DNA of 64,000 bases from Candidatus Omnitrophota bacterium (GCA_044225175.1 JBGAJA010000002.1:600991-664990); one strand, 5' to 3'; positions 21,373-26,223 are shown, counted from the stretch's first letter. The notes: generated by a model not told the origin, from the sequence alone. A program made the numbers and translations.

Positions 21373-24300
21373 ATGAAGACTATTTTTAATGCTTTACTTA
21401 TAGGTATTATCACCCTTAGCGCTCATAGTGCTTTGGCATTAAATAGTGACCTCACTCTTACCTCTTCTTCTAACGGAAAGGTTGTTGCTTCTCCGGCTGG
21501 TCCTTATCTTGTAGGTGATCAAGTTACTCTTACAGCTGTTGCTAATGATGGTTATATGTTTACGGGATGGTCTTCTGATGTGACAAGCAGAGTCAATCCA
21601 ATAACGATCACCATGGACAGCAATAAAACAATCACGGCTAATTTTGAACTTGGAAATCCTATTCAGGTTCACTCATGGTCCAATTCCGGACAATCGACCA
21701 TCCATACCATGCCTCAGTTCAATTATAGTGAGGGGGATCCCAGTTATATGGATACTGTGGTCATTCCTCGCATCAAGGCTCAATTGAATGACGGAAGGCT
21801 GCCTGGGCAGAATATACTTCATATTCAAGGGGAGATGGATGATATTAATTTGCATGGTACCTTGGATGACTTGATCATCACCAGTTCTGCTATTCAAGAC
21901 AGAAAGATAGTATTTCAAAATTTGTTTCATAAGCTTTCTACGGCTGGAGTTGCTATTGATACAGTTGTGATCGATATGGAGCAGTATTTTACTACATTTG
22001 GATTAATGGGTTTTAGGCAGGAAGCTACCTGTTCCACTTTGTCAGATAGAATTCAATTTTATTATGATCATTTCACAGGTGTGCTCAAAGATTCACGAGG
22101 TAGTGATCCGACTCTCTTTTTAGATCCTGCTTTAGTGCAAGATTACCCTGTAGATGCCACTCATCAACCCTACAACTGCACCCCTTGGAAAGGATCAGAT
22201 CCAACGTCTTCTTATTATGCTGCTTTCAATGCCTGGAATAAATGGGCCACTAATGCAGCTAAGGATGCTTATCAAGAGGCTGTGATTGGGCCGTTGCATC
22301 AATATTTTCCACAAGCCAAGGTTTCGCAATTTAATAACACATTTCCTTTTCCATCCTCTATCAATAATCCTGCTGACTGGCCTTTTGCAACACCTATTGG
22401 AGATGTTGCCTCTTCGGATTTATATTTCGTTAATACGGGAGAAAGGTACTCCTCGGGATATCGCAAACTTCAAAAGATAGACCCCTGGAATTGCTTGATT
22501 GATAAGATCAATTTACTCAGAGCTTCATTGAGCGATCAAAGTCCTAATCAGCCTGATGTGATGCCATGGTTTGGGTATCCTGGACTATCTTGGGATTATA
22601 CCGCTGTGAATGAAAAGCTTTTTGATATTATCGTATCCCATGCTGCCCAGATGGGAATTTCTCAATCTTTGTTATGGAACCCTGACTCCGTAGGCCCTTG
22701 GGGAAACCAAGCTGTCAATTCAAATCAACATGCTGCGCAAGTCTTTGCAACCACTCCAGTTAATACTGTTATCAAAAGAGATTGGTCCCCGATTCCTTTT
22801 GATTCAGATTCGATTACAACTGGAAGTGTTACAACAACTTATACAGATTTCTTAATTACTTATAATAATACATTTACATTAACCACAACAAGCACAAGCG
22901 GTGGTCAAATTCAAAGGGATGATGTGACTAATGTCATGAATCCTGACCAAACCAATTATGCTGGCTTTAAATGGGTTAAACTTTCAGCAGTTGCTGATAG
23001 TGGGGAGCAGTTCTACGGATGGATAGGGGATATTGAAAGCACGGATCCAATCGTTAATGTTCCAATGGTGGGTCCTAGAAATATTAAAGCCACCTTTGGT
23101 CCCGTCGCTATTGGGAAGATTTCTAAGGATCAAACGATAGTTCAGGGAGAAAGCGTAACTTTAACCGTATCCGCAGCAGGGGCACCCACCCTTAGTTATC
23201 AATGGAAGAAAGATGGTGCTAATATTGCAGGAGCAGCAAGTAGTTCTTATACGATTAACCCTGCTAATGTCTCAGACACGGGAAGTTACACGGTTGAAGT
23301 TTCCAACACATATGGAACTGTTACTAGTGAGCCAACCGTTTTGACAGTCACTCAAGCACCAATGATTACATATCAACCGATCAATTTGACAACCATCGTT
23401 GGCAATGAAATCACCTTTCATGTTTCTGCGCTCGGAACAGGACCGTTAACTTATCAATGGAAGAAAAATGGAACGGATATTTCTGGTGCAACAAGCGCTG
23501 ACTATACGATTAGTTCTCCTGGTTTGGCAGATGAAGCTAGTTATAGGGTAGTTGTAAGTAATACATTTGGGTCTATTCTAAGCGATGTTGCAACGCTTGC
23601 AGTTCATCAACCTCCAGCTATTAGTGTTCAGCCTGCTAGCGTAACAACTGACGAAGGACAAAGTGCAACTTTGAGTGTGACAGCCTCAGGTGCTGGGACA
23701 TTAGTGTATCAATGGAAGAAAGATGGCATATGTATAAACGGGGCTAATGGTCCAAGCTATACAATCAATGCTCCAGTTTCTTCGGATGCGGGAGTATATA
23801 GTGTGGTTGTGGCTAACGCATATGCTTTGATTCAAAGCAATTCTGCTGTGCTAGTTGTCAACAATAGACTTCCAGTAATTACAACTCAGCCTGCCAGTTT
23901 AACAGTCAATGAAAAAGATCAGGCGATATTTAGCGTCGTGGTTATAGGCACAGCTCCTTTATATTATCAGTGGATGAAAGATGGTGTTGCATTGCCAGGG
24001 AAAGTGGATGATTCATTGACTATTAATTTAGCCAAAGGAACAGATGAGGGCAGTTATACCGTGGAAGTGAGTAATATGGCAGGAAATGTGACGAGTGACC
24101 CTGCAATTCTAACCGTTCACCGATCTCCTAGTATATTGAGTCAGCCGGGAAGTTTGACAATTGATGAAGGTCAACCAGCTATATTTAGTGTCACCGCTGC
24201 AGGATCACCAACTTTGACGTATCAATGGATGAAAGATGGTGCTGCTATTGTAGGTGCAACTAATGCCTTTTTTACAATCGATTCTACAACAGCGAATCTA

Positions 24301-26223: not shown

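Follow-up and report, generated by a model that had tools for sequence, protein, structure and literature searches.

The genome segment analysed here, hereafter the window, is a stretch of 64,000 nucleotides from Candidatus Omnitrophota bacterium (GCA_044225175.1 JBGAJA010000002.1:600991-664990). It contains an open reading frame (ORF) of 1616 aa at 21373–26223 on the plus strand, which starts with ATG, encodes a large putative exoprotein and is divergent from gspE (19362–21098, minus strand), as the initial annotation of this DNA had described. When the translated product was mapped by Pfam and self-similarity tiling, it was found to contain, in this order, a signal peptide, a B-repeat, a unique region, another B-repeat, five Ig I-set domains and a PKD-B-PKD-B-PKD-B-PKD series. 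The unique region, spanning aa 95–498 (21655–22866, plus strand), is referred to here as the orphan domain. From its relatives, AlphaFold2 (AF2) modelling and Foldseek comparison it is predicted to be a glycoside hydrolase (GH)-like beta/alpha barrel that is nearest to GH56 by fold.

The initial annotation had set apart an unassigned region of about 400 residues rich in aromatic residues, and both features were borne out. The region aa 95–498 is internally non-repetitive, resembles no other part of the protein and gave no match in Pfam, NCBIfam, PHROG or the PDB sequences, and its content of F, W and Y is 12.3% as against ~6.5% elsewhere in the protein. The several cysteines mentioned there amount to three (C220, C269 and C374), and none of them occupies a conserved column of the family. 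The relatives of the domain were searched by exhaustive phmmer against 1.84 billion cluster representatives (clusters at 50% identity), which returned 48 distant relatives with E-values down to 2e-20 and 24–38% identity, one of which (P0060) was set aside as a low-complexity false positive. In the iterated profile alignment these relatives spanned the whole domain (query positions ~5–408 of a 415-aa query), and many were stand-alone proteins of 340–400 aa. The possibility that the region consists of further degenerate Ig or B-repeat units, which the annotation had itself named as the outcome that would overturn its view, is next to nil, because the relatives cover the whole region and many of them align with it end to end as stand-alone proteins; moreover, tiles covering aa 91–480 match nothing else in the exoprotein, and the predicted fold is an alpha/beta barrel and not a beta sandwich. 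Judged from sequence, aa 95–498 is one discrete domain of a very rare, unannotated family.

A word-indexed homology search with the domain alone returned no homologue, and the same search with the family profile recovered only three proteins. The fusion partners found in the relatives were RTX repeats, PA14 (P0041 and L002) and fn3. Clear signal peptides or lipoboxes were present in about one-quarter of the relatives, several have planctomycete-style LExRxL N-termini, and one is encoded 52 bp downstream of a gene for a pectate-lyase-like beta-helix protein. These partners fit extracellular carbohydrate-active enzymes, as far as can be read from the sequences. A phage origin of the relatives that have no signal peptide was considered but not supported, as no relative came from a viral contig and no PHROG covers the domain. 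Three other matches were also discarded: the PDB profile search recovered only designed PPR repeats through summed weak repeat scores (each domain E ≥ 6.7) and was spurious, a single-sequence PDB match to ParM had an E-value of 0.56, and the only match in the genome-contig scan was spurious at 43 residues. The PA14-fused member on L002, a soil or metagenome contig, lies near a Cas9 gene (RuvC_III, HNH, Cas9_a), the coordinates for this pair being 234–4334 (minus strand) and 6909–8594 (plus strand); this nearness is probably coincidental.

The conservation of residues was counted in two family alignments of 27 and 40 sequences. Asp201 and Glu203 were found to be invariant in both (27/27 and 40/40), and their codons, checked in the DNA, form the D201-M-E203 stretch at 21973–21981 (plus strand), which encodes the invariant DxE of the segment VVIDME at the C-terminal end of barrel strand 3. 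W372 and W399 are also invariant, and Y351 is present in 27/27 sequences and in 97% of the 40-sequence set. Positions conserved at ≥90% are W102, N319 (Q in the window protein), P348 (S in the window protein), R383, H423, N436, D477 and Y490, followed by W435 (82%) and T488 (>80%). The only carboxylates conserved in the family are the DxE pair and D477/D479. The latter belong to a conserved C-terminal motif, DxDx(I/V)TTGxxTTTYxDF, at aa 475–492 (~22795–22848), which is present in all members and predicted to form a beta-hairpin after the barrel.

The fold of the domain was predicted by AF2, which gave a predicted local distance difference test score (pLDDT) of 35 when no alignment was supplied, and a pLDDT of 78 with a predicted template-modelling score (pTM) of 0.83 when the 27-sequence family alignment was used. 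In this model, helices alternate with seven parallel strands, a beta-hairpin is present at the C-terminus, and strands 3 and 4 are separated by a long helical insertion, part of which is predicted with low confidence. Strand 3 corresponds to model residues 107–110 and is followed directly by D201/E203, and N/Q319 and W435/N436 are placed at the ends of strands 4 and 7, respectively. When the model was compared with the PDB by Foldseek, the top four matches were all GH56 hyaluronidases, namely 1fcu (E 3.6e-5, template-modelling score (TM) 0.51 by target), 2j88, 2atm and 1fcq, with E-values of 3.6e-5 to 2.1e-4 and TM up to 0.54. The matches at ranks 7 and 12 (9jub and 2pe4) are also GH56, so that six of the top twelve belong to this family. 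The remaining matches included GH42, GH5, PgaB, xylose-isomerase-like proteins and other TIM-barrel glycosidases, and the viral ones were depolymerase or GH-type barrels. The suggestion in the initial annotation that a separate N-terminal domain may have a catalytic-type fold was thus upheld by the Foldseek check that it had itself proposed, and the region aa 95–498 is predicted, on the strength of this model, to be a GH-like beta/alpha barrel.

The GH56 enzymes are (beta/alpha)7 barrels that act by substrate-assisted retention (PMC12254123). For the bee venom enzyme Api m 2, the roles are assigned as follows: Glu113 donates the proton, the acetamido group is held in place by Asp111, Tyr184 and Trp301, and specificity depends on Tyr227 (PMC4619011). 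The reference for the comparison was Api m 2 checked against 1FCQ, to which three more sequences from PDB alignments and then ~60 insect sequences were added. The best structural neighbours of the predicted barrel are found in this family (PF01630; Api m 2 1FCQ/1FCU, Ves v 2 2ATM, human HYAL1 2PE4 and PH-20 9JUB), whose distorted (beta/alpha)7 TIM-like form the model shares, and both have seven parallel strands and an Asp-x-Glu right after strand 3. The best hhalign path between the two families, which was not significant, was collinear and paired DxE with D111xE113, SSPxLY351 with PSVY227, PW399 with PYYW, and W435NP with IIW301G. Along this path a conserved Tyr after strand 5 and a Trp at the end of strand 7 come in the same order as in GH56, and Y351 and W435 would pair with the acetamido-site residues Y227 and W301; there is no clear equivalent of Tyr184, strand 4 ending in N/Q319. 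The orphan barrel differs from GH56 in the absence of the disulfides and of the EGF-like domain, and has two features that GH56 lacks, the long helical insertion between strands 3 and 4 and the C-terminal beta-hairpin DxDx[IV]TTGxxTTTY. The orphan family is bacterial, whereas the GH56 matches were all insect among the 120 listed of 205.

Adjacent or near-adjacent Asp and Glu residues at the end of a barrel strand are likewise known in GH18 (DxxDxDxE), GH20 (D-E), GH84 and GH85, which are also TIM barrels that cleave N-acetylhexosamine linkages with substrate assistance. In the frame of the GH18 motif, the consensus of the orphan family, D-R-x-V-L-D-x-E, carries Glu at position 8 and Asp at both position 1 and position 6, but its first Asp is not conserved at ≥80%. 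None of GH18, GH20, GH84 and GH85 appeared among the top 50 Foldseek PDB matches or in the Pfam matches, and the literature searches returned nothing relevant on a bacterial GH56-like family.

The repeats that make up the rest of the exoprotein were mapped next to the orphan domain. B-repeat 1 (Flg_new_2, a divergent InlB B-repeat) at aa 24–93 (21442–21651, plus strand) is covered by PF18998 (E 6e-62, five stretches) and is linked by self-similarity tiles to the other four B units; it stands as the annotation had placed it. B-repeat 2 at aa 505–576 (22885–23100, plus strand), which was missing from that description, was recognised by its self-similarity to B units 1, 3, 4 and 5 at 28–34% identity. 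It is followed by tandem Ig I-set domains at aa 577–1012 (23101–24408, plus strand), which are I-set-like and carry YQWKKDG-type motifs as described, and which number five and not six: the motif YQW[KM]K[DN]G occurs five times, at aa 609, 694, 779, 865 and 950, and five stretches were likewise obtained with each of the Pfam models I-set, Ig_3 and Ig_2. These domains are 37–52% identical pairwise. The strictly alternating series that the annotation had reported, three times PKD and B-repeat with a closing PKD, was found at aa 1017–1616 (24421–26220, plus strand) by Pfam (PF22352, K319L-like, four stretches; PF18998) and self-similarity, and represents a threefold duplication of a two-domain cassette whose copies are 42–48% identical. 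The Pfam scores were far above the gathering cut-offs for I-set (159 bits; cut-off 23.7), K319L-like_PKD (118.5; 27) and Flg_new_2 (206; 23.6). Partial matches to NCBIfam HypBA2 reflect only the PKD-type modules of a Bifidobacterium glycosidase and are silent on catalytic identity. The exoprotein resembles other bacterial exoproteins with Ig I-set, K319L-like PKD and Flg_new_2 domains in having all three repeat types, but the (PKD-B)x3 cassette and its joining to the orphan barrel were seen nowhere else among the proteins recovered.

The N-terminus of the exoprotein, read by eye from the translation, shows a predicted signal peptidase I (SPase I) type signal peptide of 22 residues (MKTIFNALLIGIITLSAHSALA, aa 1–22, 21373–21438, plus strand), with K2 in the n-region, a hydrophobic core and an AxA-type c-region (ALA before the predicted cut, which is followed by LN), in agreement with the initial annotation. 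Inspection of the translation revealed no lipobox Cys in the N-terminus and no recognisable C-terminal sorting or anchoring signal, as the protein terminates in a PKD domain. A stalk that displays the N-terminal domain, as the annotation proposed, is not supported as stated, because a stalk needs an anchor and the protein ends in PKD without sorting signal or lipobox; besides this, the barrel lies between two B-repeats and not at the tip. A terminator-like hairpin with a 12-bp stem and a T-run lies 4 nt past the stop codon at 26227–26253 (plus strand). The total count of terminator-like sites in the region was not above the shuffle expectation, and this hairpin is positional evidence only; its place directly after the stop codon suggests that the exoprotein gene is monocistronic. 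The full-length exoprotein was a singleton at 90% identity among ~15 billion sequences.

The minus-strand gene cluster on the other side of the exoprotein gene is a type II secretion system (T2SS) operon of twelve genes at 10871–21098, assigned by Pfam. It comprises gspE, F, G, H, (I), a J-like gene, K, a PilM/PilN-type L, a PilO-type M, a small GspC/PilP-like gene and the secretin gene gspD, with matches to T2SSE (+ MshEN), T2SSF, T2SSG, GspH, N_methyl, T2SSK_1st, PilM_2+PilN, PilO and Secretin+Secretin_N+STN. No prepilin peptidase gene was found among the window ORFs scanned (~34 of 56 ORFs ≥100 aa). For gspE, the TTG at 21098 that was assigned mechanically is probably not the true start (21060–21098, minus strand), an ATG at 21062 being likelier from the sequence: this in-frame ATG is preceded by GGAGATAAT (GGAGA), so the divergent intergenic spacer, 274 bp at 21099–21372, is probably 310 bp. 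The spacer contains a GC-rich imperfect long hairpin (CCCACCCCCTGGGTGGGG ... CCCTCCCCT/AGGGGAAGG) at 21145–21243, the rest being AT-rich. This hairpin has a non-significant fold z-score of −1.3, occurs in a single copy within the window and has no Rfam match; it might be a regulatory site.

Genes for T2SS substrates often lie beside those of the secretion system itself: in Klebsiella, pulA adjoins pulC-O, and in E. coli, sslE is found upstream of gspC-M. The products of these two genes, PulA and SslE, are lipoproteins whose catalytic families are known (GH13 and M60-like, respectively). Like PulA (Klebsiella oxytoca) and SslE/YghJ (E. coli), the exoprotein is a large, Sec-dependent and putatively glycan-directed protein encoded beside a T2SS, in this case divergently. 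Unlike them, it has no lipobox, its putative catalytic domain is unclassified, and its link to the T2SS is one of gene position. The inspected translation combines a Sec signal peptide with the lack of a membrane anchor, as looked for in a type II substrate, and the gene set at 10871–21098 provides a complete T2SS in the same genome. The exoprotein is probably secreted by this adjacent system. Its naming as the prime substrate in the initial annotation is not justified, because two other large signal-peptide proteins and one of 508 aa are encoded equally close to the operon.

The two large ones are giant paralogous ORFs that flank the region, at 7060–10812 (plus strand, 1250 aa) and 29458–37635 (plus strand, 2725 aa). 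They share the signal peptide, a 380-aa N-terminal domain (61% identity) and a ~70-aa C-terminal segment, gave no match in Pfam or NCBIfam, and are, from what their sequences offer, equally plausible T2SS cargo. The 508-aa protein (26626–28152, plus strand) is encoded immediately downstream of the exoprotein gene, has a signal-peptide-like N-terminus and gave no Pfam, NCBIfam or PDB sequence match. A further ORF of 556 aa at 51878–53548 (minus strand) showed a weak match to PgaC/IcaA-like poly-beta-1,6-GlcNAc synthases (glycosyltransferase family GT2; E 3.6e-8, far below the cut-off) and might make a polymer containing N-acetylhexosamine (HexNAc), though it lies 26 kb from the exoprotein gene.

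The window is chromosomal and contains genes for SMC, DnaG, RpoD, aroD, pheA, DAHP synthase, LepA, TolC, RNase P RNA and tRNAs, and its GC content is ~38–39%. When ~15 billion proteins were clustered at 90% identity, LepA and DAHP synthase each stood alone, and the cluster of YebC had only one other member (coordinates given for the LepA, DAHP synthase and YebC set are 47263–49053, 39438–40196 and 44698–45717). Because of these near-solitary clusters, the source lineage is judged to be poorly sampled, with essentially no close sequenced relatives. The bacterial class A RNase P RNA was located at 39042–39391 (plus strand, 142 bits), where it overlaps the 3' end of a mechanically called ORF (38657–39109), and tRNA-Met and tRNA-Val were located at 37705–37911.

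Taking the domain map, the invariant DxE, the predicted fold and the gene setting together, we favour, on an even balance of judgement, the view that the exoprotein is a Sec-exported and probably T2SS-secreted glycosidase of a new family, which would likely act on a HexNAc-containing polysaccharide. The protein would be exported by Sec and cleaved by SPase I, fold in the periplasm, and then pass the outer membrane in the folded state, probably through the adjacent T2SS. Outside the cell the barrel would cleave polysaccharide with Glu203 as the general acid/base, by analogy with GH56, GH18 and GH20, and Asp201 with the conserved aromatic residues Tyr351, Trp399 and Trp435 may hold the 2-acetamido group of the substrate for substrate-assisted cleavage. 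The two B-repeats, the five Ig domains and the (PKD-B)x3-PKD series would then serve as non-catalytic beta-sandwich spacers or binding modules. A bolder version is doubtful at present: that the barrel is an unrecognised GH family and the bacterial structural counterpart, possibly a very distant homologue, of animal GH56, sharing its DxE substrate-assisted chemistry, and that in this poorly sampled lineage it is carried on an array of Ig, PKD and B-repeat units and has a dedicated T2SS next door for its delivery.

Several observations weigh against the glycosidase view and its GH56 and T2SS components. When the 27 family members were searched against Pfam, no match was obtained even at E ≤ 10, which leaves the family with no sequence link to the known GH families. 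The full exoprotein did not match PF01630 (Glyco_hydro_56) in Pfam. The hhalign comparison of the 40-sequence family with GH56 (4 or ~64 sequences) gave P-values of 0.42–0.44 and a probability <1%, and the scores that the family obtained with a GH56 hidden Markov model built from ~60 sequences did not exceed those of shuffled or reversed controls. On these grounds no sequence criterion places the orphan barrel in GH56; it forms a family of its own, to which GH56 is closest in predicted fold and key motif. The structural match is itself modest (TM 0.41–0.54, root-mean-square deviation ~9 Å), the E-value of GH56 is only ~30-fold better than that of generic clan-A barrels, and model residues 147–184 are poorly predicted. 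The window copy is the family's most divergent member (18–27% identity), and three near-invariant positions are altered in it, 319 (Q for N), 348 (S for P) and 417 (F for W). About one-half of the relatives start directly with the domain and have no signal peptide, which shows that the family is not uniformly extracellular. As for the T2SS, the evidence for dependence is the adjacency of the genes, and a scan of the intergenic spacer gave promoter-like matches that did not exceed the shuffle expectation.

Some of these points would also suit an unlikely alternative in which the barrel lacks catalytic activity and serves as a carbohydrate-binding or pseudo-enzyme module. The whole protein would then be an adhesin or part of a surface layer, with the Ig/PKD/B array as its functional part. 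More than 70% of the exoprotein consists of adhesin-type beta-sandwich repeats, it has no sequence match to any enzyme family, and the divergence of the window copy, with its three substitutions, would also fit. However, the strictly invariant D201 and E203 are kept in this copy, as is Y351, which is conserved at 97–100%; many relatives consist of the barrel alone without adhesin repeats, and the exoprotein has no cell anchor. It is likewise improbable that the barrel is an enzyme of another kind, whether a classical two-carboxylate glycosidase of clan GH-A type, a polysaccharide esterase or deacetylase partner resembling the PgaB C-domain, or a sugar isomerase or epimerase TIM barrel, with its likeness to GH56 being generic. 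The Foldseek matches to GH42, GH5, PgaB and xylose-isomerase-like proteins at E-values of 1e-3 to 7e-2 would agree with this, a second carboxylate could come from the conserved D477 and D479 of the D-x-D-x-(I/V)-T-T-G segment, and the GH56 link is without sequence support. Set against this, GH56 accounts for the four best matches and for half of the top twelve, strands 4 and 7, which bear the catalytic pair in clan GH-A enzymes, have no conserved Glu or Asp, and both the position of DxE and the count of seven strands agree with GH56.

The secretion route is a separate matter, and it is possible, at somewhat less than an even chance, that the exoprotein is no T2SS substrate and stays in the periplasm or takes another surface route, its adjacency to gspE being coincidental. 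No T2SS targeting motif exists that could be looked for, the gene lies on its own strand with its own terminator-like hairpin, the promoter-like sites are not above chance level, the relatives use other routes (RTX repeats of the type I secretion system kind and lipoboxes), and TolC-type components are encoded in the window. On the other side, the exoprotein has a signal peptide and no membrane anchor, its size and domain type are typical of extracellular enzymes, and the gene is immediately and divergently beside a complete T2SS.

If the barrel proves to be inactive, the exoprotein would be one more repeat-rich exoprotein. If it does have glycosidase activity, it would be the founding member of a new CAZy-type family that current annotation pipelines miss entirely and for which no Pfam, NCBIfam or PHROG model exists. 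It would also allow the GH56 fold, which is otherwise centred on animals, and the substrate-assisted mechanism of that family to be compared with a bacterial case. An active enzyme would also give a concrete candidate T2SS substrate in a lineage where none is known.

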